Counted from the stretch's first letter, positions 11,909-64,000 are shown. The stretch is 64,000 bases of DNA from an uncultured Bacilli bacterium (GCA_934090795.1 CAKOJQ010000003.1:33252-97251), one strand, 5' to 3'. Notes: generated from the sequence alone by a model not told the origin. Numbers and translations: made by a program.

Positions 11909-12187
11909 TTATCCATATAATCTTTTTAAATATATAATTTTACCTTCATGTTCAAGTTTAACAAAATCATCATCATCCTCACTTAATATGTCATTTCCAC
12001 ATTCACTAGTTAATGGGCCAATATTAAGTATTTTTTCTTTAGTTAATGGATAACTCAAATATAAATAGTCATTAACAGCAGGTTTATCACCATAAAACTC
12101 TATATTAATAACATAGCTATCATCTGAATTAACATCATTTAAATAATAATTATAACCATCAATTTTATTAATTAACAATTTTATCAT
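11909..12187 (-). CDS. Hypothetical protein (92 aa)
   Basis: ORF only; overlaps the upstream gene's stop by 4 nt. Confidence 0.3.
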   Translation of the reverse strand: MIKLLINKIDGYNYYLNDVNSDDSYVINIEFYGDKPAVNDYLYLSYPLTKEKILNIGPLTSECGNDILSEDDDDFVKLEHEGKIIYLKRLYG

Positions 12188-20595: not shown

Positions 20596-20726
20596 TAGTT
20601 ACATTTAAGAGGACGAATGAAACCATCTACAACACCAATTAAAAAAGTAATTAAGCCACCAATAATAGCTAAAACAGAATAATTAGCTTTTCCACCAGTT
20701 ACCCTATTTAATTCATAATCATTCAT
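20595..20726 (-). CDS. Bacteriocin-type precursor peptide A (43 aa) with double-glycine leader: MNDYELNRVTGG|KANYSVLAIIGGLITFLIGVVDGFIRPLKCN
   Basis: Hand-translated; AAGGAG RBS 10 nt upstream. ATG overlaps the last 8 nt (ATGAATGA) of the C39-ABC transporter gene. Hydrophobic mature part with GxxxG (GVVDG). Both peptides end in a Cys-containing tail. Confidence 0.6.
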   Translation of the reverse strand: MNDYELNRVTGGKANYSVLAIIGGLITFLIGVVDGFIRPLKCN

Positions 20727-23900: not shown

Positions 23901-24815
23901 ATGTTAAAAAATAAACTAAAAAAAAGAATATTTCTTATTATATCTTCTCTTCTAATTATTTTCATTATCTATTTATTTCCCACAAAAAAAATAGAAACAA
24001 TAAATAATGTCAAAAAAAATTATAAAGAAGCCTATATTTATTTACTTGATCAAAATAACTATGTTGCTAGAGTTAATATTATTTTAAATGAAAAAGATAA
24101 TCTTAATAAAATAAAAGAAATAGTTAACTATTTAACAATCGATGGTAATAAATCAAATTATATAAAAGAAGGATTTACTCCTATAATACCTAAAAAGACC
24201 AAATTATTATCCGTTGATATCGATAATAATATTGTTAAACTAAATTTTTCTAAAGAATTACTAAATATTCCCGATAATAAAATCGATCAATTAATTTCTT
24301 CTCTAATTTACTCTATCACCAGTTTAAATAACGATTATAAATTATCTATTTATATTGAAGGAAATATTTTAACTAAATTATCAAATAATAAATTAATAGA
24401 TCCCATATTAGATCGAAGTTATGGTATTAATAAAGTGTTTAACATAAATAATATTGTTGGAACTACCAAAACAACTATATTCTATTTATCAAAACAAGAT
24501 GACTATTACTATTATATTCCCATAACTTTAGTAAATAATGATCAAGATGATAAAATAAAAATTATTATTGAAGAAATGGCATCTAAAAGTGTTTATAACA
24601 CTAATCTAATTAGTTATATCAAAGATATAAAAAAAGCTGCCTATGAGATTAAAAATGACTATATTGTTCTTAATTTAAATAGCAATAATTTTTCATCTAA
24701 GGAATTAATTGAAGAAACTATTTATACTTTTAACCTATCCATTAAAGAAAACTATAACATAAACAAAGTTGTTTATTATATTGACGATAATCTTTATAAT
24801 TCTTATGACATTTAA
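23901..24815 (+). CDS. Membrane-anchored hypothetical protein (304 aa)
   Basis: N-terminal TM IFLIISSLLIIFIIYLF. No family recognised. Confidence 0.35.
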   Translation: MLKNKLKKRIFLIISSLLIIFIIYLFPTKKIETINNVKKNYKEAYIYLLDQNNYVARVNIILNEKDNLNKIKEIVNYLTIDGNKSNYIKEGFTPIIPKKTKLLSVDIDNNIVKLNFSKELLNIPDNKIDQLISSLIYSITSLNNDYKLSIYIEGNILTKLSNNKLIDPILDRSYGINKVFNINNIVGTTKTTIFYLSKQDDYYYYIPITLVNNDQDDKIKIIIEEMASKSVYNTNLISYIKDIKKAAYEIKNDYIVLNLNSNNFSSKELIEETIYTFNLSIKENYNINKVVYYIDDNLYNSYDI

Positions 24816-30583: not shown

Positions 30584-32359
30584 TTAAAAAATTTTTAATT
30601 TTGGCTTATCTTTTAATTCAAATCTATCAACTAATTCTTCAATAGATATACCAAATTTTCTTTCAAATTCATCATTGCTCATATAAAATAAAATATTTAA
30701 CTTTCCATTTTTATCTAATAAAGGTAAACCAAACTTAATTGTTAGCTTTACTTTAATATAAAATGCATAAATAGTACCTGTTAATAAAACTTGTTTATTT
30801 TTTTCTAAATCAATTCCTCTTTGAATACAAACTTTTTTTATAGCTTTATAATCATTTATTGTATTAAAACGCATTCCTATTTGTAAAAGTAATATTCCTT
30901 GATTACTTAGAGGAGCACATCTATTTCTTTGATTTATAATCCACTTACCTAAATTTATTCTACTATTATTCGAATATGTAACTCCATCATTTGTTTTAAA
31001 GTTTTGAGGAATTTCTAAATTTCCATATTTTTCATAATAATTTTTTGCAAGTTCATAATAATATCCCCAAATATTATTAATTTTTCTTTGATACTCAACC
31101 AATTTATTATACAAGTCAGTATTAAGAACCTCAATATTCAAAAAAATATCATTTTTAAAATTTCCCTCAATTATACTTTTACTAAATAATTTATTTTTAA
31201 TTGTAGTATCCAATTCATTCATATATTCAAAATTACCAGCCAAATCAATTATCACAGGATTATTATCACGGTTAACAGCTAAAGCTCTACCTAATTGTTC
31301 AAAGAAAATAATATCAGATGATGTTCCTCTTCCCATAATAACACCATCTATATTTGGTGCGTGAATTCCTTCATTATACTGATTAATTGCAAACATGACT
31401 CTTAGCTTATCACTAACATCATTCCCATTTAAATCAATATCATGATAAAAGGCTTCTCTATTTCTTTTACCTTCTATTCCCATGTCACTTGTTGTTGTAT
31501 AAAAGATAATATTTTCTTCATCTGTTACTTGTTTAAACCATTCTATTGCTTCTTGTTTTACAGTCTCGATATCATTCACACCTTTTTCTGAAAATTGAGG
31601 ACAAAAATAAATTATTTTAGAATTTTTATGAATTGTATCTATAATTATCTTATTTATACTTGGAGCATTACCTATCCTTTTTTTAATATTTTCTAATTCT
31701 TCTAGATTATTATCTAAACCTAAAGCCTTAGTTCTTATTTCTAACTTTTTTAATATTTCTTCTAAACCAACAGCACTAGTCTTATAAACTACTTTTTGTG
31801 GTAATACGCCATCAATAATAGCGTCACTAATATCATATCTACTTACTATTTTATTAGAAAATAATTCATCAGTCTCTGGATTAGCCATATCTCTTTCGTA
31901 AGACTTATTTCGATTTCTTATTGTATAAGCAGTCATACCAAACACTTTCATATTTGGATGTGTTTCAATTAATGTCTTGGTACGATCTTCCCAAACAGGA
32001 GCACCTAAATGATGAAATTCATCTAATATTAATAAATCACAATTAATATTTTCTATTTCTTCAAAAGATAAATTAATTAAACTTTGATAAGTTCTAAATT
32101 CTACATTAGCAAAATCTTTTTTAACACTTAGATTAGATTCTTTAATAATATTTTCTAAATGTTCTATAATTCCATTTGAAGGTACCAAATAAACAATTTT
32201 TTTCTTTTGATTATTATAAGCTAAGTTTAATCCAAGATAACTTTTACCAGTACCCGTTGCATGTACTATTCCAACTACATTTTCACCACTTTTATAAGCA
32301 TCTTCTATTTTTTTATAAGTTTCTTTATTATGATTATATAATTTTAAACCTTTATTCAT
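30584..32359 (-). CDS. SF2 helicase (ResIII/DEAD-like) with 1-2 HA-like repeats; paralogue of 26082..28553
   Basis: N-terminal 400 aa ~75-80% identical to helicase 1 (MNKGLKLYNHNKETYKKIEDAYKSGENVVGIVHATGTGKSYLGLNLAY...LILDEFHHLGAP...). C-terminal has a single clear repeat plus a degenerate one. Confidence 0.7.
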   Translation of the reverse strand: MNKGLKLYNHNKETYKKIEDAYKSGENVVGIVHATGTGKSYLGLNLAYNNQKKKIVYLVPSNGIIEHLENIIKESNLSVKKDFANVEFRTYQSLINLSFEEIENINCDLLILDEFHHLGAPVWEDRTKTLIETHPNMKVFGMTAYTIRNRNKSYERDMANPETDELFSNKIVSRYDISDAIIDGVLPQKVVYKTSAVGLEEILKKLEIRTKALGLDNNLEELENIKKRIGNAPSINKIIIDTIHKNSKIIYFCPQFSEKGVNDIETVKQEAIEWFKQVTDEENIIFYTTTSDMGIEGKRNREAFYHDIDLNGNDVSDKLRVMFAINQYNEGIHAPNIDGVIMGRGTSSDIIFFEQLGRALAVNRDNNPVIIDLAGNFEYMNELDTTIKNKLFSKSIIEGNFKNDIFLNIEVLNTDLYNKLVEYQRKINNIWGYYYELAKNYYEKYGNLEIPQNFKTNDGVTYSNNSRINLGKWIINQRNRCAPLSNQGILLLQIGMRFNTINDYKAIKKVCIQRGIDLEKNKQVLLTGTIYAFYIKVKLTIKFGLPLLDKNGKLNILFYMSNDEFERKFGISIEELVDRFELKDKPKLKIF

Positions 32360-32692: not shown

Positions 32693-34330
32693 TTATTTAC
32701 CATCTATTATTTTTTTCTTTATGTCTTTATCAATTGGAGACAATGGTAACTCTAGACCATATTTAATAAATAAATCTTTATGTTTAGACATTTCTATATT
32801 AAATTGTTGTCTTAGTTCATCATTTTTGCCTATTTCATTAAGTAATATTTTTGAATACTCCAAAAATTCTTTTTTATCCCTTTTTAGAAATTTTTTATCT
32901 TTAAAATAACTTAAATCAATTTTAGCAAGACGATGAAATATTAAAGTAAATAAACCTGATAATAGTAAGCCCATTGCTACATTAAGAGTAGTATCTGTGC
33001 TTTCAAATTCTTTAGATTCTAAATCTATCGTTTTATATATTATCTCATAATAATCAACTAATTCTGTATACTTAATTGGCGACTTTGATATATCTATAAT
33101 ATTCTTTTTAGATTCAGGTAATAAATTATTTGATTGGATATATTCAATATATTTTTCCATATCATCGTATCCTAAAAAACTTAAATCATAGGTTTTTGTT
33201 TCTCTTAATTTTAATTTTGCTTCGGCTGCGCCATAATTATATTCTCTACTTTTTCTTCCTTCTTTTTTAGCAGTTTTATCATCTAAAACATGATATTCAA
33301 TAAGATATGTTTGCTCTGGCTTTATTTCATCTACAAATCCAATTATTTCTTTTGTATTAGAAGATGTAACTTGATTTGTAATTGAATTGTATATTTCAGT
33401 ATTAGTTTCATAATAATATGCTGATGTTAATTCCTTAAACCAAGAAAACACTCCAGAAAATATACCTATTGATATTGATAAGGTTATAGCAGTTGAAATT
33501 AGTGATGTAAATAATTTTAATAATTCTTTTTTACATAATTTTTTAAAATATTGTACATTCTGATCAGCCTTTGTATAAGAACTATATGTGTGATAGATTT
33601 GACTGTCACTTTTATCAATTAAAGATAATAAATTTGTCATATCATCTTTGATAGACTCTTCTAATTTTTCTTTTTCATCTCTAAAAACAATTGTTTTTAT
33701 AAAACTATTATCTAGAAGTTCAGCTGGATTCAAATTCTTCTTAGCATTGTAATAACATACTTCAATTTCCGGATATTCAGTTAAATCTATGGTCTTAATA
33801 TATTCTTCAATCATTAAACTTATAAACATAGTATCATTAATATCATACTTACAAAATTCTAATAGTTCGCTTTTTTGATTCAATTTTATCTCTATAAAAA
33901 TAACTTTTAAAATAGCATTATAGAATGGTTCAACTACTTGTTTTTCATCCTCATAATCAACTACTGAAGAATTTCTTATTTTTCTTAAAAGAAGTTTTAT
34001 TTCATCTATTATTTCGTTTAAGTTTTCACTAGTAATATTAACTTTATTTAAATATTTGACATAATAATATACTTTAACATAAATAGTATAACTATCTAAC
34101 TTGGCATCTAACTTTTCTAATTTTCCTGTAGCGTTTATATAGTCATTTATTATAATTCCTTCAAAACTATTTTTCTTAGAACTTTTAATATCATTATTAT
34201 TTTCTATTTTGATACTATCTAATTCTTCTCTTATTTTAGTTACATCAAAACCAATTTTTTCAATCTCTCTTATTTTGTTATCAATTTCAATTAATTTTGC
34301 TTTATAGCTAATTGCGACGTCTGTGTTCAT
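32693..34330 (-). CDS. Two-TM membrane protein with long N-terminal coiled-coil-like domain (paralogue A)
   Basis: 545 aa; AGGAGG RBS. TMs LISTAITLSISIGIFSGVF and LNVAMGLLLSGLFTLIF. N- and C-termini similar to 34334..36010. Confidence 0.45.
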   Translation of the reverse strand: MNTDVAISYKAKLIEIDNKIREIEKIGFDVTKIREELDSIKIENNNDIKSSKKNSFEGIIINDYINATGKLEKLDAKLDSYTIYVKVYYYVKYLNKVNITSENLNEIIDEIKLLLRKIRNSSVVDYEDEKQVVEPFYNAILKVIFIEIKLNQKSELLEFCKYDINDTMFISLMIEEYIKTIDLTEYPEIEVCYYNAKKNLNPAELLDNSFIKTIVFRDEKEKLEESIKDDMTNLLSLIDKSDSQIYHTYSSYTKADQNVQYFKKLCKKELLKLFTSLISTAITLSISIGIFSGVFSWFKELTSAYYYETNTEIYNSITNQVTSSNTKEIIGFVDEIKPEQTYLIEYHVLDDKTAKKEGRKSREYNYGAAEAKLKLRETKTYDLSFLGYDDMEKYIEYIQSNNLLPESKKNIIDISKSPIKYTELVDYYEIIYKTIDLESKEFESTDTTLNVAMGLLLSGLFTLIFHRLAKIDLSYFKDKKFLKRDKKEFLEYSKILLNEIGKNDELRQQFNIEMSKHKDLFIKYGLELPLSPIDKDIKKKIIDGK

Positions 34331-34333
34331 ATT

Positions 34334-36010
34334 TTATTTTCCTCCTAATAATTTTTTCTTGGTAGTACTATCAAGTGCTTCTTTGGGAAGTTTAATTTCC
34401 ATCTGCTCAAATAAATCACCATATTTAGCTGCTTCGATATTAAATAATTCTCTAAGTTTCTCATTTTGACCAATTAACATTAGTAGTTCTTTAGTTTGTT
34501 CTAAAAATAATTTTTTATCATTTTTAAGATTTTCTTTTGCTTTCACACATCTTTTTAAATTCATAATTAGATGAAATTTACTATCATAGTTATAATAATC
34601 ATCTTTAGATAAATCTATATATATAATTCCCGCTTCTATGGCAATAGTTAAAATAGTAAGTATAATAGAAAATGCAATACTATTACTACTTGCTTCGACA
34701 TTTTTGGATTCTAAGTCTATAATATTATATACAATTTCATAATAATCTACATATTCTTGAATAATATCAACATTGTCTTTTATGTTAACAATTTCACTGC
34801 TATTAACAGGTACAGTAGCATTGCTATTCCAATAATCTAAATACCCATTAATATCTTGATATTTTAAATAGCTTAAATCATAAATGGTTTTTCTTCGATA
34901 CCACATAGCATCTTCCTCTGAAATTCCAGAAATATAATTTACTTTAGAATTATAGTCATCAATATCATCATCAGTTAATCTATCATATTTAATAACATAG
35001 GCTGTTTCAGTTGTATCATCAACAATTTCTCGTTCATCACTATGGGTATAAGTATTATCATAAGAACTATATGTATCTTTACTAACATCATATGAATATT
35101 TTTTGAATAACTTTTTGCCTAAAAAATTAAATAAGCTAAAACTAGCTATTGGGATTGATAACGCTATGGCAACTGCAACAATTGATTTCATAAGTTCTTT
35201 AAATTCTAATTTAAATGTTCTAACACTATCTTCATATCTTTTTTCAGTATTAGAATAATCTTTATATTTTTCTTTAATATCTTTTTCAACTGACTCAATA
35301 TTTTTAACCATGTTATTAGCAGGAACTGTTATAACATTTTTTAATCTATCTTTTTCATCTTTAAATACTATTAATTTAAGAAAATCATTATCTAATAGTG
35401 AACTATTACTGCCATTTCTTTTGATTTCATAGTATTTAGCTTCAATTTCGGGATATTTTTCAAAATTAATTTCATCGACTGTTGACTTTATTTTTCTTTC
35501 GATAAATGATTTGTCGATTTCACTAGCTTTGCAAAATTCTAGCAAAGTGCTTTTTCCAGTATAATATATTTCAAAACAAATTACTTTAAAAACACCTGTG
35601 TAAAAAGGCTCAACAATTTTCTTTTCTTCTTCATAATCAATCACTGATGAATTACCAAGACTTCTAAGTAATTTTTTAATTTCACCAACAATTTCACTTA
35701 TTTTATCTTCTTTAATATAATTTTTATCTAAATATTCAGCATAATTATTAACTTTAATATATATTTCAAAAGAATCTAAACTAGAATCTAATTTTTCTAA
35801 TCTTGCCATTGCATTAGAATAATCAGCAATTATAAATCCTTCAAAATTTTTATTTTTAGATATTTTAACTTTTGAATTAGTATCAGTAATAATTTTTTCT
35901 ACTTCTTCTTTAAATGTCTTAACATTAAAACCAATTCTTTCTATTTCTTCTATTTTGTCTTCAACCTGGATTAGTTTAGCTTTATAATTTAGTGCTACAT
36001 CTGTATTCAT
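34334..36010 (-). CDS. Two-TM membrane protein (paralogue B); probable start MNTDVALNYK
   Basis: ORF track's 36100 start is longer. GGGGGAATGAG RBS before the ATG at 36008-10, and the N-terminus aligns with paralogue A (MNTDVAISYKAKLIEID... vs MNTDVALNYKAKLIQVED...). Confidence 0.45.
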   Translation of the reverse strand: MNTDVALNYKAKLIQVEDKIEEIERIGFNVKTFKEEVEKIITDTNSKVKISKNKNFEGFIIADYSNAMARLEKLDSSLDSFEIYIKVNNYAEYLDKNYIKEDKISEIVGEIKKLLRSLGNSSVIDYEEEKKIVEPFYTGVFKVICFEIYYTGKSTLLEFCKASEIDKSFIERKIKSTVDEINFEKYPEIEAKYYEIKRNGSNSSLLDNDFLKLIVFKDEKDRLKNVITVPANNMVKNIESVEKDIKEKYKDYSNTEKRYEDSVRTFKLEFKELMKSIVAVAIALSIPIASFSLFNFLGKKLFKKYSYDVSKDTYSSYDNTYTHSDEREIVDDTTETAYVIKYDRLTDDDIDDYNSKVNYISGISEEDAMWYRRKTIYDLSYLKYQDINGYLDYWNSNATVPVNSSEIVNIKDNVDIIQEYVDYYEIVYNIIDLESKNVEASSNSIAFSIILTILTIAIEAGIIYIDLSKDDYYNYDSKFHLIMNLKRCVKAKENLKNDKKLFLEQTKELLMLIGQNEKLRELFNIEAAKYGDLFEQMEIKLPKEALDSTTKKKLLGGK

Positions 36011-36029
36011 AAACTCATTCCCCCAATAA

Positions 36030-36080
36030 ATTAAGATATATATTACCATACTTTTAATGAAAAAGCAAACATTTTTTTGA
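36030..36080 (-). promoter_or_regulatory. Sigma-A-type promoter: A-tract + TTGCTT -35, 17-nt spacer, TAATAT -10 (minus strand)
   Basis: Reverse complement reads aaaaaaATGTTTGCTttttcattaaaagtatggTAATATatatc...GGGGGAatgagtttATG. The same AAAAAATGTTTGCTTTTT block recurs at 45721-40 and 49561-80, and as a variant at 32500-20. Confidence 0.4.
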
Positions 36081-36181
36081 TTTATAATATATAAAAACAC
36101 AAAAGAAAATCTAATGTGTTTAAATTATAAAATATAACATATTACGACCTATTTTACCCATCCTAAAATAACAATAACTGT

Positions 36182-40045: not shown

Positions 40046-40582
40046 CTATTTATGTTTTAAATTTGAATTATTACCTAAAGAATATGTTTTAGGTTTTGAT
40101 TCTTGGACTTCAGTTTGTTCATTAATTTCATCTAGTGTTTCGCCTATTTTATCATTTCCATATAATTCTTGGAATTTTAAAAATTTTTGTTTTTCTTCTT
40201 CTAAATAAGCAATCATTTCTTCAGGAGTCATTGTTTTATAATTAATTTCTTTTTCTGATTCGTATTTAATATTTTCATTTTCTTCTTCATTAAATAATAT
40301 TTCATCATTTATATATTCTTTTCTTATCGTTTGATATATTTCCTCACGATAAGATATTAAAAAACATGGATATACTATATGGCATATAGGAATAATCGAT
40401 AAAACAATTAATAATTTTAGTACACTTTCAAAATCTCTAAAATTTACTTGCGATCCGTCTGTGACACTATCTAAATCTTTTTTTATTCTTTTTATAGTTA
40501 TTATGTTAAAAATTTCGTTAGTTGCAAGTGCAAAAATTGTGCATACACAATAAGTTATTATTTTTATTATTAATAATGACAT
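40046..40582 (-). CDS. Small 2-TM membrane protein, tandem family member 3 (178 aa)
   Basis: Same architecture; divergent TM region; conserved tail ending ...NLKHK. Confidence 0.55.
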   Translation of the reverse strand: MSLLIIKIITYCVCTIFALATNEIFNIITIKRIKKDLDSVTDGSQVNFRDFESVLKLLIVLSIIPICHIVYPCFLISYREEIYQTIRKEYINDEILFNEEENENIKYESEKEINYKTMTPEEMIAYLEEEKQKFLKFQELYGNDKIGETLDEINEQTEVQESKPKTYSLGNNSNLKHK

Positions 40583-40846: not shown

Positions 40847-41380
40847 CTATTTATGTTTTAAATTTGAATTATTACCTAAAGAATATGTTTTAGGTTTTGA
40901 TTCTTGGGCTTCAGTTTGTTCATTAATTTTATCAAGTGTTTCTCCTAATTTTTCGTTTCCATACAATTCTTGGAATTTTAAAAATTTTTGCTTTTCTTCT
41001 TCTAAATAAGCAATCTTTTCATCAGAAGTCATTGTTTTATAATCAATTTTTTCTTCCGATTCGTCTTTAATATTTTCATTTTCTTCTCCACCAAAGAATG
41101 TTTCATCATCTATATATTTTTTCCTTATCACTGGATATATTTTTTCATAATTAGATATCAAAAACAATGGATATATTATATTGAATATAGGAATAATTGA
41201 TAAAAATAATGATTTTGGTATACTTTTAAAATTCATAAAACTTATTTGTGATTCGTCTGCGACTCTATTTAAATCTTTTTTTATTCTTTTCATAGTTATT
41301 GTGACAAATATTTCGCAAATTACAAATGTGAAAATTGCAGATTCACCATAAAATATTAATAGCATTTTTAATAATGACAT
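40847..41380 (-). CDS. Small 2-TM membrane protein, tandem family member 4 (177 aa)
   Basis: Same architecture; a few substitutions in the conserved tail (TSDEKIAY, NEKLGETLDKINEQTEAQ). Confidence 0.55.
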   Translation of the reverse strand: MSLLKMLLIFYGESAIFTFVICEIFVTITMKRIKKDLNRVADESQISFMNFKSIPKSLFLSIIPIFNIIYPLFLISNYEKIYPVIRKKYIDDETFFGGEENENIKDESEEKIDYKTMTSDEKIAYLEEEKQKFLKFQELYGNEKLGETLDKINEQTEAQESKPKTYSLGNNSNLKHK

Positions 41381-41434: not shown

Positions 41435-41575
41435 CTAAAAGTTCGTAATATAATATTTAATTTTTTCCGTTTCTTTTTGATTTTTCATTAATTTAATTCT
41501 TTATTTTTGCCAATTATTTCCACTAGATATATACAAACAATTGTTTTAATATATTCTCGTAAGGAGAAATGTTTA

Positions 41576-42844
41576 ATGAATAATAATTTATATTCAAATA
41601 GAAATATTATTGCAATTGATTTAAAAAGTTTTTTTGCTTCTGTTGAATGTATAGAAAGAGGTCTTGATCCATTTACTACTGCTCTAGTTGTTTGTGATCC
41701 AACTAGAAATGGCGCTATTACTTTGGCAGTTACGCCTTTTTTAAAAAATTTAGGAGTTCCATCTAGAGGAAGAGCCTATGATTTACCTAAAAACATTAAA
41801 ATATTTAAAGCACCACCTCGTATGAGCCTATATATTCAAAAAAGCCGTGAGGTTTTAAGCATTTATTTAGAGTATGTTGCTAAAGAAGATATTCATGTCT
41901 ACTCAATTGATGAAGTGTTTTTAGATGTTACTAATTACCTTCATATGTATAATATGACTGATTATGAACTTGCTCAAACTATTATAAATGATATAAAGAA
42001 AAGAACTGGACTTACCACAACAGCCGGAATTGGTCCAAATATATTACTTGCTAAACTCTCAATGGATATTGAAGCTAAACACGTTCAAAATAACATTGCT
42101 AAATGGACTTATGATGATGTTAAAAATAAATTATGGTCTATCACTCCCTTATCAAAAATGTGGAGCATTGGGCCTCGTATGGAACGTAATTTAAATAAGC
42201 TAGGTCTTTATACAGTAGGAGATATTGCCAAATATGATAAAAATAAATTAAAAGATAAATATGGTATTATTGGTATTGAGCTATGGGAGCATGCTAATGG
42301 GATTGATAACGCTAGAATAAGTGATTTTAATAATTATATTCCAAAAGAAAATTCAATTAGTCATAGTCAAATTTTATTTAAAGATTATAATCAAAATAAC
42401 ATAATTCTTATTATAAGAGAAATGGTAAGTGTTTTAGTTAAAAGGTTAAGAACGGCTCATAAACAAACTTCTTCAATTGGTTTAGGAATCGGTTACTCTA
42501 AGGAAACTGGTGGTGGTTTTTATCACGTAACTAAGTTAGATACTAGTACATTTAAAGAAGATGAAATAGCTGATATCTGCTTAAACATGTTTGATAAATA
42601 TTATGAAGAATATATGCCAATTAGAAAAGTTTCAATTTCTTTTGGTAGATTATCTGATGATACCGGAATCCAGCTTAATATATTTGAATCATTTGAAAAA
42701 GAAAAAACAAACAAAAATGGTGAAATTGTTATAGATGAGCTTAATAACAAATATGGTGCTAATATGATTTTGAAAGCATCTAGCTTACTTGAAGATTCTA
42801 CTATTAGAATGCGTAATGGGAAGATAGGAGGTCACAATGCCTAA
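41576..42844 (+). CDS. Y-family (translesion) DNA polymerase, UvrX/YqjW/DinB-like
   Basis: IIAIDLKSFFASVECIERGLDP, SIDEVFLDVT and GIGPN... palm motifs. AAGGAG RBS before the ATG at 41576 (the ORF track's 41507 start is longer). Confidence 0.8.
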   Translation: MNNNLYSNRNIIAIDLKSFFASVECIERGLDPFTTALVVCDPTRNGAITLAVTPFLKNLGVPSRGRAYDLPKNIKIFKAPPRMSLYIQKSREVLSIYLEYVAKEDIHVYSIDEVFLDVTNYLHMYNMTDYELAQTIINDIKKRTGLTTTAGIGPNILLAKLSMDIEAKHVQNNIAKWTYDDVKNKLWSITPLSKMWSIGPRMERNLNKLGLYTVGDIAKYDKNKLKDKYGIIGIELWEHANGIDNARISDFNNYIPKENSISHSQILFKDYNQNNIILIIREMVSVLVKRLRTAHKQTSSIGLGIGYSKETGGGFYHVTKLDTSTFKEDEIADICLNMFDKYYEEYMPIRKVSISFGRLSDDTGIQLNIFESFEKEKTNKNGEIVIDELNNKYGANMILKASSLLEDSTIRMRNGKIGGHNA

Positions 42845-43169
42845 TAGAAACGCGATTAAATGGGCTCCTTTTAATTCAGTTATTAACGGCAACTATATAA
42901 TGAGTATGATAGTTAAAGAAAAATCTAGAATAGTTAAACCTACTTTATCAGAAGAACAAATAAATGAGTTTGAAAATTTAGTTAAAGAATCATTAATTAA
43001 TAAAATACCTTTAGAATTTACTATTTACGATAATGGATATACTAAAAATATAAAAGGAACCGTTACTAAAATAGACAGTTCCTTAAATAAAATATTTTTA
43101 AACTATAATAATCATATCTTCTTTTGTGAAATAATGAATATTAAAAAACTAGATTATTTCTTATCATAA
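42837..43169 (+). CDS. yolD: YolD-like protein (UmuD-analogue partner of Firmicutes Y-family polymerases)
   Basis: 110 aa; NAIKWAPFNSV...KPTLSEEQINEFENLV...FTIYDNGYTKNIKGTVTKID matches the YolD family (IKWQPF...KPELSEDQQEE...). Overlaps the polymerase stop by 8 nt. Confidence 0.65.
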   Translation: MPNRNAIKWAPFNSVINGNYIMSMIVKEKSRIVKPTLSEEQINEFENLVKESLINKIPLEFTIYDNGYTKNIKGTVTKIDSSLNKIFLNYNNHIFFCEIMNIKKLDYFLS

Positions 43170-50202: not shown

Positions 50203-51591
50203 TTAAAGTGATTCATTATTATTATCATCTATTATTTCTTTTGTTTTCATTAAATCATCTAATGCATCTTCTATTGTTGTAGGTTCTTTTTCTTCAAACG
50301 CTTCATCTATAACACTTTTTTCTTTCATTTTAGGCATATCATCAAGTATTTCATTATCATTATTATTTATTTTTTTATTATTCTTTTTATTTTTATAGAA
50401 GAAGATAAAATAAGCAGCAACCCCAGCAATTATTAAACCTCCAAAAATTAATAAAATAATTAAAACCATCTTTGAATTATTATTATTTTTATCAATTGCC
50501 CCAGGTACAAATGTCGTTGTAGTTGTAGGTTCTTCACTAACATATTCTTCCCTTAGTACCGTTATATTATAAATATTAACTTCATTTTCTTCATCAGTAG
50601 GAGTTACAGTAATTGTAACAATATTTTCTCCAACTTTTAAGTTATCAGCACCCTTTATTTCAACTTTTGCATTCTCATCAGCTGCAGTAGCACTTATCTC
50701 TAATTTCTCAATCTCAAAAGGAACGCTTAATGTATAATCTAAGTTATTTTCATCAAACTTTTCATTTATATTATAATCTTTAACACTTAAACTAGCTAGC
50801 TTATTTGATCCATCAGTAGTTTCTCCACGATAAATTATAAATTTATACTCTTCAGTTGATTTTTCATCTTCACTCGTAAATTTAAATATTACTTCATTCT
50901 TACCTTGAATAGTTTGAATAATTGTATCGGAAGAACTTGATACAGTACACCCAACAGTACACTCACTAGTTAATGTTACACCAGTTTGTTCAGTATTATA
51001 TACAAGCACAACTTGTCTAATAGTATCTTTAGTATATAATTTATATTCATGAGTATTAGAATTAAAAGCAGGTTTCATGGTTGAATTTTTAAAACTCATG
51101 CTTGTTACTTTAGCACTTGTATTTTTAGGTTTAGTTGTTGTAGTTGTTACACCTTGTCTTAAAGTCAAGGTTTTTGAGTAATCCACTGCCGTTCCAACTT
51201 CATCTGCGCCTTTCCTAAACTTAATATTTTTAATTACAAAAGAAGTTGTTGTGCTAGCCTCACTTAAATTAGTAACTGAAAATGAACCAATTATTCCGTC
51301 TTTCAAATTAGTACTAGATACTATAAATCCTTTATTTCCTGAATAAGTTTCAGTTGTAGAATAATCATTACTAGTACTACCACTAAATTTAAGAATACCT
51401 GCATCATAATTTATTTCAAATTCAACTTGATCAAATTCATCACTGCCAACATCACTAAGTTTTAGCTCATATTTACCGGTCTCATTTGTTTTTAATGTTG
51501 ATACACCAGTAACTTCTAACGATGCAGCATCAACTGATATTGCACCTATTAAGCTTACCAAACTCCCAATCAAAATTTTTTTAATTTTCAT
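50203..51591 (-). CDS. Cell-surface protein: signal peptide, Thr-rich region, cadherin-like beta-sandwich-type domain, C-terminal TM anchor and charged tail
   Basis: MKIKKILIGSLVSLIGAISVDA signal. KLASLSVKDYNINEKFDENNLDYTLSVPFEIEKLEISATAADENAKVEI resembles the Cadherin-like/SLH-associated domain. C-terminal MVLIILLIFGGLIIAGVAAYFIFFY. Confidence 0.5.
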   Translation of the reverse strand: MKIKKILIGSLVSLIGAISVDAASLEVTGVSTLKTNETGKYELKLSDVGSDEFDQVEFEINYDAGILKFSGSTSNDYSTTETYSGNKGFIVSSTNLKDGIIGSFSVTNLSEASTTTSFVIKNIKFRKGADEVGTAVDYSKTLTLRQGVTTTTTKPKNTSAKVTSMSFKNSTMKPAFNSNTHEYKLYTKDTIRQVVLVYNTEQTGVTLTSECTVGCTVSSSSDTIIQTIQGKNEVIFKFTSEDEKSTEEYKFIIYRGETTDGSNKLASLSVKDYNINEKFDENNLDYTLSVPFEIEKLEISATAADENAKVEIKGADNLKVGENIVTITVTPTDEENEVNIYNITVLREEYVSEEPTTTTTFVPGAIDKNNNNSKMVLIILLIFGGLIIAGVAAYFIFFYKNKKNNKKINNNDNEILDDMPKMKEKSVIDEAFEEKEPTTIEDALDDLMKTKEIIDDNNNESL

Positions 51592-56652: not shown

Positions 56653-57273
56653 TTATAAAGTATATTCTTTAATAATATTGTCATCTATTTCTTTCATTTT
56701 TTCATTTGGTATTCTTATCACATCAATATAATCATATTCACTAAATGGTGGAATAATTGACATTTTACTAATAGTTTTCATATGTTCGATTAATGCATAT
56801 GAAGTAATATTATCACGTTTACTGTAATATTTTAAAGAATTTTTTATTTTTTTCTTTTTTGCGTTATCACTTTCTTTTGAATAATTTAATCTAAGTTTTT
56901 CTATTTCGCTATCAAGAATTAAAACATTGCCCAAATCAACACTTTTTTTATGTTTTTTGGATGAAATAGGAATAACATGTAAGACAGGATTATATGCTGT
57001 GTCTCCTTTAGAAACAACAATTGCAAAATGATTTCCTGAAAATTCACTTCCTATATTTACTCCAAATCTAACTTTTATTACACTTCCTCTACTATATCTT
57101 CTAAAGTATAATGGTTTATTTTCTATCTCATATAGTAATGTATTGCTATTTTTTAAAATGGTATTTTCAAAATTAGTATACTTATCGCCTAAATTCATAT
57201 CTGAAATTCTTACAAAATTAACATGAGCATTGGTTAATTTTTTATGTTTTATTTCTGGAGATAATTCATTCAT
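56653..57273 (-). CDS. MazF/PemK-fold protein with N- and C-terminal extensions (206 aa)
   Basis: RGSVIKVRFGVNIGSEFSGNHFAIVVSKGDTAYNPVLHVIPISSKK...SYALIEHMKTISKMSI parallels the MazF signature (GdI..v.f.p..GsEq.g.RPvvVvs...vvPiTs...s.vl.dQirtidk.Rl). Confidence 0.4.
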   Translation of the reverse strand: MNELSPEIKHKKLTNAHVNFVRISDMNLGDKYTNFENTILKNSNTLLYEIENKPLYFRRYSRGSVIKVRFGVNIGSEFSGNHFAIVVSKGDTAYNPVLHVIPISSKKHKKSVDLGNVLILDSEIEKLRLNYSKESDNAKKKKIKNSLKYYSKRDNITSYALIEHMKTISKMSIIPPFSEYDYIDVIRIPNEKMKEIDDNIIKEYTL

Positions 57274-57286
57274 TTATAATCACATC

Positions 57287-57655
57287 CTAATATATATTTT
57301 CGATTAAATTACCCACTTTTATTATTCTTTCTTCTCTATTTATATCATATAAAAATATTTCACAATCATTTTCATAAAATTCCTTAATCATATTTTTATT
57401 AATATTTTTTAAATCATTTATCGTTTTAGAACTTGTCATAATATATAAACTATCAAAATCTTTTTTTCTATATCCATGACTAACCGCGTTTGCTATTGCA
57501 GCTTCTTCAGCATATATTGTACTTCTAAAAATGTCATTCTTAACAATAACACCGGCAAATAATTTTCCATCATTCATCTTTGCTACAGCGCTATAAAAAA
57601 TATTATCATGAGGAGCATAACAATTACTTAATAATCTTTCTAATTCTCTTATCAT
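57287..57655 (-). CDS. Cytidine-deaminase-fold paralogue lacking the zinc ligands (probable pseudoenzyme)
   Basis: Aligns with the cdd next door (AGVIVKN...AEEAAIANAVSHGY...YIMTSS) but has YAEE instead of C/H-AE and no PCxxC motif. Confidence 0.55.
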   Translation of the reverse strand: MIRELERLLSNCYAPHDNIFYSAVAKMNDGKLFAGVIVKNDIFRSTIYAEEAAIANAVSHGYRKKDFDSLYIMTSSKTINDLKNINKNMIKEFYENDCEIFLYDINREERIIKVGNLIENIY

Positions 57656-58035
57656 TAGTCCTCCAAATTAAATGGATAAGGGCAAATATCTGCTACTGTA
57701 AATTCTTTACACTTTCCTCTATTATTATAGCAAAAAACCTTAGCATCAGGCAAGAAATATTCATGTAGTAATTCCCTGCACATAAAACATGGCATACATA
57801 TTTCTTTACTTGAACCCATTACATGTATTTCTTTAAAATCTTTAACGGAAAATCCTTCACTAAATGCATTTGCTATCGCAACTTGTTCTGCGCACATTCC
57901 ACTTTTACCATCTTTATTTTCAATATTTACTCCAATTACTTCTTGATTATTTTGCATAACAATCACACATGCAACTTTATAATTAGAAATATTAGCATAA
58001 GCATTTTTCATAATTAGTTTTAAATTATCTTTCAT
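57655..58035 (-). CDS. cdd: Cytidine deaminase (homotetrameric type)
   Basis: CAEQVAI (Zn-ligand Cys + catalytic Glu) and CMPCFMC (PCxxC) motifs; 126 aa; GGAGAG RBS. Confidence 0.8.
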   Translation of the reverse strand: MKDNLKLIMKNAYANISNYKVACVIVMQNNQEVIGVNIENKDGKSGMCAEQVAIANAFSEGFSVKDFKEIHVMGSSKEICMPCFMCRELLHEYFLPDAKVFCYNNRGKCKEFTVADICPYPFNLED

Positions 58036-58658: not shown

Positions 58659-59323
58659 ATTACCACTCCATACAAATTAAGTATTATTATCACTAATATT
58701 GCAATTATTAATACACATATTAAATTTAATAAAAAACTATTTTTTACTCTTTCACTAGTCTTTTTAAATATAAACTCACTTACTAAATAGAAAAGATACC
58801 CAACAACTCCACCAACCACATTTAAAATTATATCATCTACATCAAAGCTTCTACCTAAAAGTAACTGAATAGTCTCAACAGTTGAACTAACAATAAGTGT
58901 AATTAAAAAACTATAAGTTATATTTTTAGTCTTACAGTAATAACTAGTATAATAACCAAATGGAATAAATAAAACTACATTTCCTATCACATTACGATAA
59001 AATAACTTAGAAGTAACACTATATCTAAATATTTCTTTAAAAGGAATAAAATTATTACCAAAAGAAGAAAAATCAGTAGCAGTTACCAAACTAAATAACA
59101 TTATAACATAAGCTATAAACACTAAATTAATTATCTCTTTATATATCTCTAACTTAGTACGATTTGCCAAGCTATAAGCTATCTTTAAACATATTGTTGT
59201 AATCATACATAATAATAAGATAGGCCATAAATCAACTATAATTTCAATTGCTGCTTTGGGTATCACTAGCATCACCTTTTTCATAGTACTGGTATTCATT
59301 AATAAGTTCATTACAAATAACAA
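58655..59323 (-). CDS. VanZ-like family membrane protein (start probably an internal Met such as MKKVML at ~59284)
   Basis: Multi-TM with GRSFDVDDIILNVVGGVVGYL, the VanZ signature. The ORF-track start overlaps yqfD by 80 nt. Confidence 0.45.
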   Translation of the reverse strand: MLFVMNLLMNTSTMKKVMLVIPKAAIEIIVDLWPILLLCMITTICLKIAYSLANRTKLEIYKEIINLVFIAYVIMLFSLVTATDFSSFGNNFIPFKEIFRYSVTSKLFYRNVIGNVVLFIPFGYYTSYYCKTKNITYSFLITLIVSSTVETIQLLLGRSFDVDDIILNVVGGVVGYLFYLVSEFIFKKTSERVKNSFLLNLICVLIIAILVIIILNLYGVVI

Positions 59324-60380
59324 ATACTCTATAATCTATTGTACTATTATTTATCTCTTTTTTCAAAACTTTTTGACTACTAATTGTTCCAATATTACTA
59401 AATTTTTCTTTAATTTTATCATTTACCAAATTTTCTACCTCTTCATCACTTAAAATATGTTTTTTATATCCATATTCTTTCTCTTTATAAAACTTAATTT
59501 TTAATCCTAATATCTTTATCTCTCTTATATTTTCTTGACTAAAATATTTATATTTATTTTTAAAAAATATTTTATCATTTATATTGATATTAAACCTAGA
59601 CTTACCAGTATATTCTTTTTTATTTTCTTCTTTAGGTATTGATACCTCTACGTCATACCATACATTACCATATACATATCCTGTTGCTAAAGTATCACCT
59701 TTAACTTCTTCATATAATTTAATTTCTCCACTAATTAAGACATCCCCTTTTTTAACATATTCCCCACTTCTAACTAAATTAACTCCTTTAGTAGATATAA
59801 TCTTAGTAATATAAGCATCTTTTTTAGCAATTATATTTCGGTATCCACTTTCTTTATTTATTTCTTTAATTTTTCTTTCTTCACATCTAATTATATATTT
59901 CATCCCATCTTTAGTAATACTAATCCACTCTAATTTATCTTTATTATTAATTAATATATTGTCTTGTATTTTTTCTAATTCATTAAAATCATAAGCAAAA
60001 GAATATTTCTTAACATTATTATTATCTAATTCTTTATATATTAACTTACGAATACTAGATGATGAATGTATTACTTCAATATCTACTATATAACTAGTTA
60101 TTATATCCATTAAAATAAAAGCAAGAATAAATATTATTATATAAAAAATATTATTTTTAATCATTTCTTTAAGTTTATTAATTCCAACATAACTAACTAT
60201 TTTAATCTTTGAATAATAATTTAATCTTTTAATTTTTTTATAATCATCTAAATTTATTATACATGTTATCTTATTATTATCTATATAACTTATATTAGAT
60301 AAATAAATCTTATTACTAATACACTTATTTATAAATCTATTAACACTTCCCGTTACTTCTATTTTAACTTGTTTATTCAT
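59244..60380 (-). CDS. yqfD: Sporulation protein YqfD
   Basis: MNKQVKIEVTGSVNRFINKCISNKIYLSNI N-terminus typical of YqfD; central TM; overlaps yqfC. Confidence 0.7.
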   Translation of the reverse strand: MNKQVKIEVTGSVNRFINKCISNKIYLSNISYIDNNKITCIINLDDYKKIKRLNYYSKIKIVSYVGINKLKEMIKNNIFYIIIFILAFILMDIITSYIVDIEVIHSSSSIRKLIYKELDNNNVKKYSFAYDFNELEKIQDNILINNKDKLEWISITKDGMKYIIRCEERKIKEINKESGYRNIIAKKDAYITKIISTKGVNLVRSGEYVKKGDVLISGEIKLYEEVKGDTLATGYVYGNVWYDVEVSIPKEENKKEYTGKSRFNININDKIFFKNKYKYFSQENIREIKILGLKIKFYKEKEYGYKKHILSDEEVENLVNDKIKEKFSNIGTISSQKVLKKEINNSTIDYRVFVICNELINEYQYYEKGDASDTQSSN

Positions 60381-60618
60381 AGGATACTCCTACAATATTA
60401 CCAGAAATAATTAATTCATTTTCTTGCATATGTTTTATTAACATATTACTACCTTTAATCTTTAAATTAAAATTATCAAATTTAACCATTGTTAAATTAT
60501 TATCAAATGAGATTATATCTTTATAATTATATAAATAAATATTATTTTTATATAAACAAATATAATAATTATTATTTCTTAAGGCGTTATTAATTATCTC
60601 TAGCATACGCTTCACCAT
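60373..60618 (-). CDS. yqfC: Sporulation protein YqfC
   Basis: 81 aa; ...LIISGNIVGVSYE C-terminus and position directly upstream of yqfD. Confidence 0.65.
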   Translation of the reverse strand: MVKRMLEIINNALRNNNYYICLYKNNIYLYNYKDIISFDNNLTMVKFDNFNLKIKGSNMLIKHMQENELIISGNIVGVSYE

Positions 60619-60673
60619 TTAATTATATGTTTTAAACAAAAGAAAACTACTGAAATTCAGTAGTTAAATATTA

Positions 60674-63600
60674 TTATGGTATTAATGTTATTCTAGCGTA
60701 ACCATTTCCTTCTTTAGCACAGTTTACAGTTGGTGTTTCACTATGGCACGTAGTTGTAACGGTCTTAGTACCTTCGGCACTTGATTCAGTACAATTATAA
60801 CAATACATTACTTTATTTGTTAATAATGTATTACCAATATATGATGAACCGCCGCCACCGCCACCGTAGCAGTTTCCACCAGTACCAGCGCCGCCACCAT
60901 AATAGCCTCCGCCTCCAGCACCGCCATTATTGCTGGCTTTACCATTTCCCCCAATTCCAAATGAACCAGCATTACACCAACCGCCATCTACGCACTTTCC
61001 TCCTGCAGTTTGTGTACCACCACCACCAGATTTATTAGAACAAGCTCCATCAACACCATTATTTCCACTTAAACCACCAGCGTTACCACCAGCACCAGAG
61101 TTACCTTTGCCACCGCCACCACCAGCAACAATTATAATGTTGTTTAAAGATGAAGATAAAGTGTTTAATTTGCCAATTGAAGTAGCAATATGTGTTGCTC
61201 CTCCACCACCAAATCCATTTGTTAGTGCAGTACCACCACCATTATATCCTCCAGTAATACCTGATCCAGCTCCACCGACATAAACATACAAACTATCATT
61301 TCTATTTAAATTTATAGTTCCAGAAGAATAGCCTCCTGTTCCTCCTGTTCCACCACCTTGGGCTCCCCAAGCTTCAAGTTTATATGTTCCAGCAATTGGT
61401 GCAGTAAATGTATAATATGGTTCTGAAAGACTTGTTGTTGAAGCAACATAATCGTATTCTATAAATTGAAAACTTCCTGTATAACTATATCTAGCTTCAA
61501 TAGTAATATCAGATGTTGCACTAAGTTTATTATTAGTTATATTTCCTTTTCCATCAGTTATTACATAACCATCAAACCTGTAATTATCATAGCTACTATG
61601 ATTAGGCATATCAATTGGTTTGCCTTTATATGCATATAATGTTGTTGTTTTATTTGAAACAGTATCAACTATTGTAACAGTGATATTTCCAGCTTTTTTT
61701 ATTTCACCAGCATATGTTATTCTTGCATAACCATTTCCTTCTTTAGCACAATTAGATGTTGGTGTTTCACTATGACATGTAGTTGAAAGCGTCTTAGTAG
61801 ATTCAACATTTGATTCAGTGCAATTATAGCAATACATCACTTTATTCGTTAATAATGTATTCCCAATATAGCCAGAACCGCCGCCGCCACCTCTATAATG
61901 AAGACCGCCGCCACCGCCATAAAGACCGCCGCCGCCACCTGATCCATCACCTTTACTAGATCCACCTTGACCAAATGAACCAGCGGTTTGACCAGTTCCA
62001 GCAGCAGTTTGACTGCCACCAGTTCCGCTTCCTGAAAAAATTCCTGCAGCACCTTGAATACCGCCACCTGAACCTCCATCGCTTGAATAGCTATCACTTT
62101 CATAAGAAGCGCCACCACCGCCACCAGACACTATAATTAGATTATCTAATTTATTTGATAGGGTATTAAGTAATCCAGTTGTTAGTGATATGAATGTAGC
62201 ACCACCTCCACTTCCAACTGTTTTACCATTAGTTGCACCAAATGCATTACCACCGCCATTATAGCCACCCGATACAGATGATTGAGTAGTACCATTTGTT
62301 CCTGCTCCGCCAACATAAATGTAAATCGTTTGTCCTTTTTTTAAATATATATTTGCAGCACTATATCCACCATAACCACCTACTTTTGTTTTAGCAGAAC
62401 CTCCTTGGGCTCCCCAAACTTCTATCTTATAATTTTCATCGATGGGAGCAGTAAAAGTATAGTAAGGTTCAATATTATTATTAGAAGGAGCTATATATGC
62501 ATATTCATCAATTACTTTATTTTTATATTTTACTTTCAAAACAACTTTATCACTATTTGGAGTTATTTTTGTTCCATTAATAGTTGCCAATCCACTCTCT
62601 AGTTCAAATTCATAAAAAACATAGTTATCGCTCAATTCCGGTGATAATGTTATTTCCATTCCCTTTTGCGTCTCTACCGTAGTAACTTTCTTTAGTTCCT
62701 CACTTACAATAGTTATTATTGACAATTCTTCTACAACTGAATCATCAGGTAAAGTGATTCTAGCATATCCATTTCCACTTTTAGCACAATTAGATGTTGG
62801 CGTTTCACTATGACAAGTTGTTGATACTGTTTTGGTAGATTCATCACTTGATTCAGTACAATTATAACAATACATTGACTTATTTGTTAAAAGCGAGTTC
62901 CCTATATAGCCCGAGCCTCCGCCTCCGCCGCATGAATCATTTACACCACCGCCATAGAAGCCACCGCCTCCACCACCAATTCCATATTGGTAACTACTAA
63001 CATATTTATAACTTCTACCTTGACCAAATGTTCCGCCACTATCACTTTCGGTTTGCTTGCCAGAAACACCATACACATCATTCTTTTGCAAATGTGGCTC
63101 ACCATCAACACCATTAAAGCCACCTCCGGATCCTCCTAGTCTAATTTGATATTTACTTGGTTCCCATCCGCCTACTCCACCGCCGCCGCCAGCGACAATA
63201 AGAATTGCTTGTTGATTAGTATTTAGTGTTGATAATAAACCAGATACAGTAGCAATGTGAGTTGCGCCTCCACCACCACCATTATATCTTGTTGAAGAAA
63301 CATTTCCACCATTGCCTCCACCATTATAACCACCTGAAGCAATTTCACTTGATGCTGAACCATTTGTTCCCTTGCCACCCACATTTATGTATAAAACATC
63401 ATTTTTATTTAAGGAAACAATTCCAAAAGAATAGCCACCATATCCGCTCTCATAAGTAGAAAAACCTCCACCTTGTGCTCCCCACGTTTCTAATTTATAT
63501 TTTCCATCTACCGGAGCTACAAATTTTTCATTATTACCCGTATAAGTAAATTCGATTTTATTAGTAGAAGAATATTTTGCCTTTATAGACGCATTCCCAT

Positions 63601-64000
63601 TTATTGTAATTTTATTTCCATTAATTGTTGCATTTCCTGACTCAACATTCCATCCTGAAAAATATGCACCTGCTTTAGAAGCAATAATTGGTAATTCATA
63701 AGTACTATTTTTTTCAAATTTAACTGTTTTATTAATATTACGCTGTTCATCAATTATTGTTAAATCAACAAGCTCCCCTGGCTTTTCAATTGTTATATAA
63801 GCAGATAATTGTTTTCCCATATCACTATTTTGATTCGTATAAGTTTTATTTGGAAACGCTAGCGTTAAAGTATAATTATGAACAACACCATTTTCAATAT
63901 TGCCTGATGTATCAAATGTTCCATATCCTAAACTTACCTTGCTAGATCCTGACTTCAACGTATTAGGTAAAACATAAGCAACTGTTCCATTATTATTAGT
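60674..64000 (-). CDS. Giant glycine-rich repeat protein: three ~350-aa modules (beta-strand lead-in, Gly-rich core, Cys-containing cap); N-terminus lies beyond the window end
   Basis: Reading frame stays open to position 64000. Each module: YTFTAPIxxxYKxExWGAQGG...GGYGGY...lYiYVGGAGtnG...GGYNGGG...GGGAThI...L..L...iIVaGGGGG...GSFGqGG...GGGGGsgYIGNTLLTNKVMYCYNCTESxxExTKTxxTTCHSETPTxNCAKEGNGYARITL. Confidence 0.6.
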   Translation of the reverse strand, partial: TNNNGTVAYVLPNTLKSGSSKVSLGYGTFDTSGNIENGVVHNYTLTLAFPNKTYTNQNSDMGKQLSAYITIEKPGELVDLTIIDEQRNINKTVKFEKNSTYELPIIASKAGAYFSGWNVESGNATINGNKITINGNASIKAKYSSTNKIEFTYTGNNEKFVAPVDGKYKLETWGAQGGGFSTYESGYGGYSFGIVSLNKNDVLYINVGGKGTNGSASSEIASGGYNGGGNGGNVSSTRYNGGGGGATHIATVSGLLSTLNTNQQAILIVAGGGGGVGGWEPSKYQIRLGGSGGGFNGVDGEPHLQKNDVYGVSGKQTESDSGGTFGQGRSYKYVSSYQYGIGGGGGGFYGGGVNDSCGGGGGSGYIGNSLLTNKSMYCYNCTESSDESTKTVSTTCHSETPTSNCAKSGNGYARITLPDDSVVEELSIITIVSEELKKVTTVETQKGMEITLSPELSDNYVFYEFELESGLATINGTKITPNSDKVVLKVKYKNKVIDEYAYIAPSNNNIEPYYTFTAPIDENYKIEVWGAQGGSAKTKVGGYGGYSAANIYLKKGQTIYIYVGGAGTNGTTQSSVSGGYNGGGNAFGATNGKTVGSGGGATFISLTTGLLNTLSNKLDNLIIVSGGGGGASYESDSYSSDGGSGGGIQGAAGIFSGSGTGGSQTAAGTGQTAGSFGQGGSSKGDGSGGGGGLYGGGGGLHYRGGGGGSGYIGNTLLTNKVMYCYNCTESNVESTKTLSTTCHSETPTSNCAKEGNGYARITYAGEIKKAGNITVTIVDTVSNKTTTLYAYKGKPIDMPNHSSYDNYRFDGYVITDGKGNITNNKLSATSDITIEARYSYTGSFQFIEYDYVASTTSLSEPYYTFTAPIAGTYKLEAWGAQGGGTGGTGGYSSGTINLNRNDSLYVYVGGAGSGITGGYNGGGTALTNGFGGGGATHIATSIGKLNTLSSSLNNIIIVAGGGGGKGNSGAGGNAGGLSGNNGVDGACSNKSGGGGTQTAGGKCVDGGWCNAGSFGIGGNGKASNNGGAGGGGYYGGGAGTGGNCYGGGGGGSSYIGNTLLTNKVMYCYNCTESSAEGTKTVTTTCHSETPTVNCAKEGNGYARITLIP

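Follow-up and report, generated by a model that had tools for sequence, protein, structure and literature searches.

What kind of protein is encoded by the giant glycine-rich open reading frame (ORF) found next to the sporulation genes yqfC and yqfD in an uncultured Bacilli bacterium, and what role may it play? The frame occupies the end of a 64,000-nucleotide (nt) stretch of DNA (GCA_934090795.1, CAKOJQ010000003.1:33252-97251; hereafter the window), where it stays open on the minus strand from position 64000 to a stop codon at 60674-60676 and comprises 1108 codons, 20.7% of which encode glycine. A first-pass annotation, made from the sequence of the window alone, had described it as a repeat of three modules from a family that it did not recognise. 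We found that each module corresponds to a domain already catalogued in Pfam, the ALK/LTK glycine-rich domain (GRD; PF12810, ALK_LTK_GRD), and we lean towards a role in binding at the cell surface.

The assignment of the modules to PF12810 is almost certain. The Pfam profile matches the protein in three stretches with E = 1.5e-99 and 333.4 bits, against a gathering threshold of 24.5, an E value that places the match far beyond chance, and the best stretch, in module 2, covers profile positions 9-242 of 243. No NCBIfam model matches the protein, and a search of the PDB sequences with the single sequence (phmmer) gave no match, so that a profile was needed. Complete modules (255) were cut from 120 homologues, and 45 diverse ones made up an alignment, A1. 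Searched against all PDB sequences, the A1 profile matched GRD chains of ALK and SCD-2 only (E = 8.3e-7 to 5.3e-5), among them 7LIR, 7NWZ, 7LRZ and 7N00.

The fold of the module leads to the same family. AlphaFold2, which the first-pass annotation had suggested running on one module, was applied to module 2 with A1 and returned a confident model of 12 β-strands (pLDDT 95.8, pTM 0.93). A Foldseek search of the PDB with this model placed ALK/LTK GRDs at all of ranks 1-21 (prob 1.00, E = 6e-9 to 4e-6, TM 0.39-0.53), and the next match stood at E = 0.25. We therefore rejected the glycine-rich β-solenoid that had been guessed from the sequence, since ALK/LTK GRDs are the sole significant PDB matches of the model. 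From these matches we infer that the module would fold as a TNF-like β-sandwich with a glycine-rich insert. In an alignment of 250 modules, the glycine blocks are conserved and alternate with variable, indel-rich segments.

With the GRDs of ALK and LTK (PDB 7LRZ, 7N00, 7MZY, 7NX1, 7LIR) the window protein has in common the Pfam domain, a reciprocal profile match and the predicted fold, but the likeness ends with the GRD. P0001, a full-length homologue 99% identical to the window protein, contains no kinase, MAM, LDLa or EGF-like domain, and orthology with the receptor tyrosine kinases was rejected because no kinase or other ALK/LTK Pfam domain is found in it. Furthermore, the GRD of the window protein comes as a tandem of three with β-spacers, and its ligand cannot be taken by default to be the ALKAL cytokines. 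A HMMER scan with A1 of 1.84 billion representative proteins, clustered at 50% identity, returned 14,790 clusters at E <= 1e-3 and 2,565 at E <= 1e-30, with proteins of up to 7,775 amino acids (aa) and up to 11 matching stretches. The family is known and very large, and the window protein is an uncharacterised member of it, not a protein of a new kind. An exotic-looking sequence thus falls in a catalogued domain family with thousands of bacterial and phage members, which will be no surprise to a specialist acquainted with PF12810.

The window holds the 3′ 90% of the gene (60674-64000, minus strand, as are all parts of the gene given below), the frame being open to the window edge. The full gene was recovered from a metagenome contig (L084) that matches the window at 100% identity through all 3327 nt of the gene present there and a further 7430 nt downstream. 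It measures 3693 nt and encodes 1230 aa, with its first 122 codons beyond the window end. The frame begins with a GTG start codon, preceded by the ribosome-binding site AAGGTAGG, and is continuous from there; an interruption upstream, named beforehand as a reason to doubt the frame, was not found. The giant glycine-rich ORF is therefore real. With 37% GC in a window of 24.8% GC, the gene has the higher GC content expected from its many GGN glycine codons.

The three-module organisation is borne out by the alignment of the units with one another and by the three PF12810 stretches. The units are about 345 aa long, and in each the motif WGAQGG (aa 173, 529 and 878) is followed by GYARIT (aa 411, 757 and 1100). 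Module 1 (62750-63559) and module 3 (60677-61459) are placed by their PF12810 stretches and the unit alignment; module 2 (61712-62512), the one modelled, has the best Pfam stretch together with the AlphaFold2 and Foldseek results. Each module had been said to start with YTFTAP, which holds for units 2 and 3, whereas unit 1 opens with EKFVAPVDGKYKLETWGAQGG (EKFVAP…). The earlier description of the modules as DNA-level repeats proved apt for the 216-nt caps at 60683-60898, 61712-61927 and 62750-62965 (73-76% DNA identity; family D1 of the repeat finder, with spacings of 1029 and 1038 nt) and overstated for the whole units, which in the three-unit alignment have pairwise identities of 58-63% (DNA) and 52-55% (protein). 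The longest exact runs common to the units measure 21-32 nt.

Next we consider the caps, which are nearly invariant in protein across the three units and in module 1 follow the pattern GGGGSGYIGN…MYCYNC…TTC-x8-C…GNGYARITL. Where the first-pass annotation had counted three cysteines per cap there are four (C-Y-N-C … C-x8-C), at aa 378, 381, 396 and 405 in module 1 (cap at 62750-62965), at 724, 727, 742 and 751 in module 2 (61712-61927) and at 1067, 1070, 1085 and 1094 in module 3 (60683-60898); module 3 has four extra loop cysteines at aa 987, 1003, 1009 and 1044. In the module 2 model, the first cysteine (C1) stands at the end of strand 221-229, and the C-x8-C loop, closed by C3 and C4, precedes the final strand, 262-267. 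The four columns read CCCC in 163 of the 250 aligned modules, and most of the others keep C1 and C2 with C3 and C4 both gone (CCNY in 31, CC-Y in 18); the loss of C1 or C2 with C3 and C4 retained occurs in only two.

This pattern bears on the chemistry of the cap, for which either disulfides or a metal site of three Cys and a His had been proposed. The CxxC…C…C spacing is superficially like that of a zinc knuckle, and the cap could in principle bind Zn or Fe for a redox or a structural role. We regard this as very improbable: about 30% of the modules lack both C3 and C4 yet keep the CxxC, the His after C3 is the majority residue in only about 30% of the 250 modules, and the protein would be extracellular. 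A His takes the place of C4 in a single module (CCSH). The joint loss of C3 and C4 and the poor conservation of the His thus favour disulfides over a four-ligand metal site, and it is plausible that the cap is closed by two independent disulfides, one in the CxxC pair and one in the C-x8-C pair.

The N-terminus of the protein, MKELDLIKKKRILIVTISIGLLLTILIGAAVAYMAPK…, where the first-pass annotation had suggested looking for a signal peptide, is predicted to carry a signal or anchor helix. An AlphaFold2 model of P0001 residues 1-205 (pLDDT 72.8) has a helix at 2-33 and strands at 44-194, and an AVA|Y site of signal-peptidase type can be discerned by eye. The C-terminal part of this modelled β-sandwich domain (P0001 residues ~123-198) is encoded at 63773-64000, and the part of the gene for the signal or anchor helix and the first strands is beyond the window end. 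When the N-terminal 198 aa were used to search for homologues, only five close fragments came back, so that the alignment is shallow and the model mediocre; an N-terminal profile searched against the PDB sequences gave chance-level lectin matches only. The TasA/camelysin family (PF12389), whose members have a hydrophobic leader followed by a β-sandwich as predicted here, matches eight of nine homologous N-termini at E <= 0.1, with a best value of 2.9e-7, and P0004 passes the cut-off of 22.5 bits with 26.5. We regard the N-terminal β-sandwich as probably TasA/camelysin-like. Other members of the family have prepilin N-methylation (type IV pilin) leaders or plain signal anchors in this position.

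The modules are separated by β-spacers of about 80 aa. Linker 1 (63560-63772) resembles an InlB B-repeat β domain, with a PF09479 (Flg_new) match at aa 92-142 that remains below threshold (E = 0.0096, 16.5 bits against 27); linker 2 (62513-62749) aligns with linkers 1 and 3 and is of the same type as linker 1, and linker 3 (61460-61711) is placed by the unit alignment. The InlB B-repeat surface proteins of Bacilli (PF09479/PF18998) offer a comparison: relatives of the window protein join canonical B-repeats (Flg_new/Flg_new_2) and GRDs, with B-repeats at the linker position (94 bits in P0073), and one is named "InlB B-repeat-containing protein" at NCBI, whereas the window spacers match weakly. 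The protein stops directly after module 3 (…GYARITLIP*), and its C-terminus has no LPXTG motif and no anchor.

Relatives of the protein were found at 79 loci in 43 assemblies among species-representative genomes, with at least five loci in some metagenome-assembled genomes (MAGs). The carriers are nearly all uncultured gut "Bacilli bacterium" MAGs (many from the Hadza), CAG:582, Coprobacillus sp. CAG:605 and "Tenericutes" UMGS bins. The locus itself is kept at the same place in many metagenomes, and its alleles can be compared. Their N-termini are at least 94% identical, and module 3 is at least 96% identical among the three-module alleles P0001, P0002 and P0003, and 87-89% identical in P0006, which has two modules only. 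Allele P0003 has a different module 1, at 60% identity.

The first-pass annotation had suggested that identity between the modules, as in the caps, would promote recombination. Within the window allele alone this identity would be marginal; the comparison of alleles supports the suggestion, as whole modules are replaced with a breakpoint at the cap. Two modules of P0002 are 98% identical in DNA, with an exact run of 701 nt. The contig that carries this allele (L001) is collinear with the window locus at 96-97% DNA identity except for about 670 nt, where module-2-like sequence stands in place of the module 1 core, and the right-hand breakpoint is the start of the conserved module 1 cap. Furthermore, P0073, a protein with a pilin leader and a single module, is 86% identical to module 1 of the window protein. 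Around another pilin-type member, P0077, the genes are of the housekeeping and PT-HINT kinds, and a pilus operon is absent. In that related gut Bacilli genome (L082, 14641-22061), very large Big_2 and PT-HINT proteins of polymorphic-toxin type are encoded a few genes downstream of P0077.

Phages carry the domain as well. Homology to a known phage tail-fibre family had been named as a finding that would refute the first-pass reading, and such homology was in effect found, PF12810 being common in phage virion and tail-fibre proteins. Among predicted viral structures (BFVD) there are 101 matches at E <= 1e-3, the best with a TM of 0.74 and 32% identity; they include virion structural and tail-fibre proteins, and many are automatically named "receptor protein-tyrosine kinase". 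PHROGs 7388, 1589 and 5811, to which no function is assigned, match each module with E = 1e-28 to 1e-37. The tail fibre gp24 of cyanophage Pam3 combines a TNF-like sandwich and a glycine-rich lattice with variable distal loops; it is the receptor-binding tip, and its likeness to C. elegans ALK has been remarked (PMC9608196). A survey of polyproline-II bundles lists ALK, LTK and phage S16 gp38 and no bacterial surface protein (bioRxiv 10.1101/2023.11.25.568672). In Pam3 gp24 and Salmonella phage S16 gp38 (PDB 6F45), as in the window modules, conserved glycine motifs alternate with variable loops. The window protein differs from these tips in its cellular context, its leader of Sec type and its tandem heads, and it lacks a trimerising helix, a chaperone gene and a phage neighbourhood.

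Collectively, the three non-identical heads and the export signal, the fibre-type carriers of relatives, the expansion into a multigene family and the swapping of heads point to a variable multivalent surface adhesin or ligand binder, and by analogy with the phage tips and ALK/LTK we hold, with moderate confidence, that the window protein is secreted or displayed at the surface and serves in binding there. Under this hypothesis, the very AT-rich (25% GC) human-gut bacterium of the class Bacilli would export the 1230-aa protein by the Sec pathway, with a signal or anchor helix, a probably TasA/camelysin-like β-sandwich and three units, each of an InlB-B-repeat-like spacer and a GRD. The protein would then be either attached via its N-terminal helix or freed by cleavage at AVA|Y, and would act as a multivalent adhesin or ligand-binding fibre whose three GRD heads, each different, sit on β-spacers. 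As judged from the homologous ALK/LTK domains and phage tips, the invariant runs GGYNGGG, IVAGGGGG, GGGGGYYGGG and GGGGSGYIGN may form a rigid polyglycine-II lattice, and the segments of variable length between the glycine runs may be exposed loops that set binding specificity, while the Cys cap would close the β-sandwich, stapled by its two disulfides. Recombination at the caps, within the gene and with paralogues, would swap whole heads and could generate binding or antigenic diversity between strains.

Several results weigh against this proposal. The TM to ALK is only about 0.5, at 14-19% identity, and in sequence the match to ALK stops at profile position ~217, which leaves the four-Cys cap unaligned. 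The window protein itself stays below the PF12389 cut-off (17.4 bits, E = 0.0042), and Foldseek with the N-terminal model gave weak, generic matches to β-sandwich, jelly-roll and lectin folds and none to TasA. Neither sipW nor a sortase or pilus gene was seen among the 20 window ORFs scanned with Pfam, which include all the largest, or among the called genes in the 6 kb upstream, with the smaller ORFs and the rest of the genome outside the search. No functional name is carried by the members of the clusters, and the literature searched holds no experimental characterisation of any bacterial GRD member.

The results on the N-terminus also bear on a variant of the same proposal, in which the TasA-like domain polymerises by donor-strand exchange and the GRD heads decorate the resulting fibre, a pilin leader taking the same role in relatives. 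The PF12389 matches of homologous N-termini speak for such a polymeric subunit, as does the prepilin leader on proteins with near-identical modules such as P0073, and a shared "VFNSGT" strand motif presumably resembles the N-terminal strand of TasA. Yet the fold search missed TasA, no sipW or tapA-like partner was seen among the window ORFs and upstream genes scanned, and some 1000 additional residues of GRDs, which TasA does not have, would be an unusual load for such a fibre; we take the variant to be possible and rather unlikely. Much less probable still is that the protein is a remnant or domesticated phage tail-fibre or receptor-binding protein. The frequency of the domain in phage proteins, the structural matches of up to TM 0.74 at 32% identity and the precedent of Pam3 gp24 make the idea a natural one, but no phage genes lie near (the neighbours are polC, yqfC, yqfD, ybeY, cdd, era and recO), the protein has an N-terminal helix of Sec type and no baseplate-attachment or trimerisation domain, and the locus is conserved in place across many metagenomes.

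The position of the gene had suggested to the first-pass annotation a role as a fibre of the spore or cell surface. On the spore reading, the protein would go with yqfC and yqfD and decorate the spore as an exosporium or appendage fibre. The adjacency is correct: yqfC (60373-60618, minus strand; YabP family, assigned by PF07873 on the identical gene in L001) starts 55 nt downstream of the GRD gene on the same strand and is followed by yqfD (59244-60380, minus strand; PF06898). Sporulation genes are present in the organism (YabP, YqfD and, at 23901-24815, a Germane-domain protein), and the founding member of PF12389, TasA, was originally described from B. subtilis as a protein associated with spores. 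However, a terminator-like hairpin (60645-60665) with a T-run, AACTACTGAATTTCAGTAGTT then TTCTTTTGTT, lies between the GRD stop codon and yqfC (60635-60665, minus strand); a scan for sites of this kind gave two, against 0.2 expected in shuffled sequences. Another hairpin comes just after polC, upstream of the GRD gene, and both exceed the expectation from shuffling. Upstream of the gene there is a σ70-like TTTACA-17-TAAAAT, a kind of site that is not above chance. As read from these signals, the GRD gene seems to form a unit of its own, with a terminator-like hairpin on either side. Identical and near-identical contigs show the gene order toxN - polC - GRD gene - yqfC - yqfD - vanZ-like - ybeY - cdd - … - era - recO, and the run from yqfC to recO is a conserved housekeeping and sporulation block with the GRD gene at its edge, beside polC. 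Paralogues and relatives occur in unrelated contexts, with pilin leaders. Furthermore, neither the window protein nor full-length P0001 has a Pfam match to PE, PGRS, collagen-like, BclA C-terminal or Ena (DUF3992) families, and the glycines of the three units form runs (GGGGG, GGYNGGG) and no G-X-Y triplet tracts; a collagen-like or BclA-type fibre was rejected on these two grounds. We thus consider a spore-surface fibre improbable, its adjacency to the spore genes notwithstanding, while an exported protein of the cell surface, the other half of the earlier suggestion, is plausible.

The glycine-rich PE_PGRS proteins of mycobacteria, which had also been named as possible homologues, were rejected for lack of a PE or PGRS match in Pfam. 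They resemble the window protein in being glycine-rich with a predicted polyglycine-II/PPII bundle (PMC13243192), and differ from it in their PE domain, export route and repeat logic.

Returning to the variable surface binder that we favour, its expansion in uncultured low-GC gut Bacilli, the fibre-type leaders of its relatives and the swapping of heads are hallmarks of variable surface recognition, and make the family a reasonable target for work on gut colonisation or phage-host interplay; the finding itself is of modest value. The bacterial and phage members also bear on the origin of the metazoan ALK/LTK ligand-binding domain. One could go further and suppose, very tentatively, that GRDs are interchangeable receptor-binding heads from a pool common to gut Bacilli and phages, mounted on TasA-like and type IV pilin carriers and recombined at the cap, which would make up an undescribed class of polyglycine-II-tipped adhesive fibres; we would sooner expect this broad picture to fail than to hold. 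In a bolder version, some GRDs of gut bacteria might bind host peptide ligands, a suggestion that arises because ALK and LTK use this fold for small helical cytokines.

Other features of the region were noted in passing. Outside the window, the gene next to polC on its upstream side encodes a ToxN_toxin (type III toxin-antitoxin; L001, 927-1442). The 20 Pfam-scanned window ORFs contain no second GRD gene, and most are housekeeping genes. A second predicted surface protein, encoded at 50203-51591 (minus strand; 462 aa), combines a signal peptide and a C-terminal hydrophobic segment with a Cadherin-like β-sandwich domain (PF12733). At 20719-22704 (minus strand) there is an ABC exporter with an N-terminal C39 peptidase domain, of the type that exports bacteriocins or double-glycine peptides. 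A 206-aa protein with a PemK/MazF-like toxin domain (56653-57273, minus strand), for which no antitoxin was identified, is encoded between a cytidine-deaminase-like pair (57287-57655 and 57655-58035) and era.

Four ORFs of 500-590 aa (10327-11829, 12184-13947, 32693-34330 and 34334-36100, all on the minus strand) match no Pfam family at E <= 1e-5. Two large proteins, encoded at 26082-28553 and 30584-32359 (both minus strand) with small ORFs between them, combine a ResIII helicase with repeated helicase-associated (HA) domains. The tandem ORFs at 40046-40582 and 40847-41380 (both minus strand) encode paralogues of 178 and 177 aa with hydrophobic N-termini and nearly identical C-terminal halves (…EEEKQKFLKFQELYGN…KPKTYSLGNNSNLKHK), the first of which is without a Pfam match. 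Finally, a 445-aa ORF on the plus strand (41507-43169) appears by eye to be like a Y-family DNA polymerase (DinB/UmuC-type), and overlaps a downstream ORF of 110 aa.

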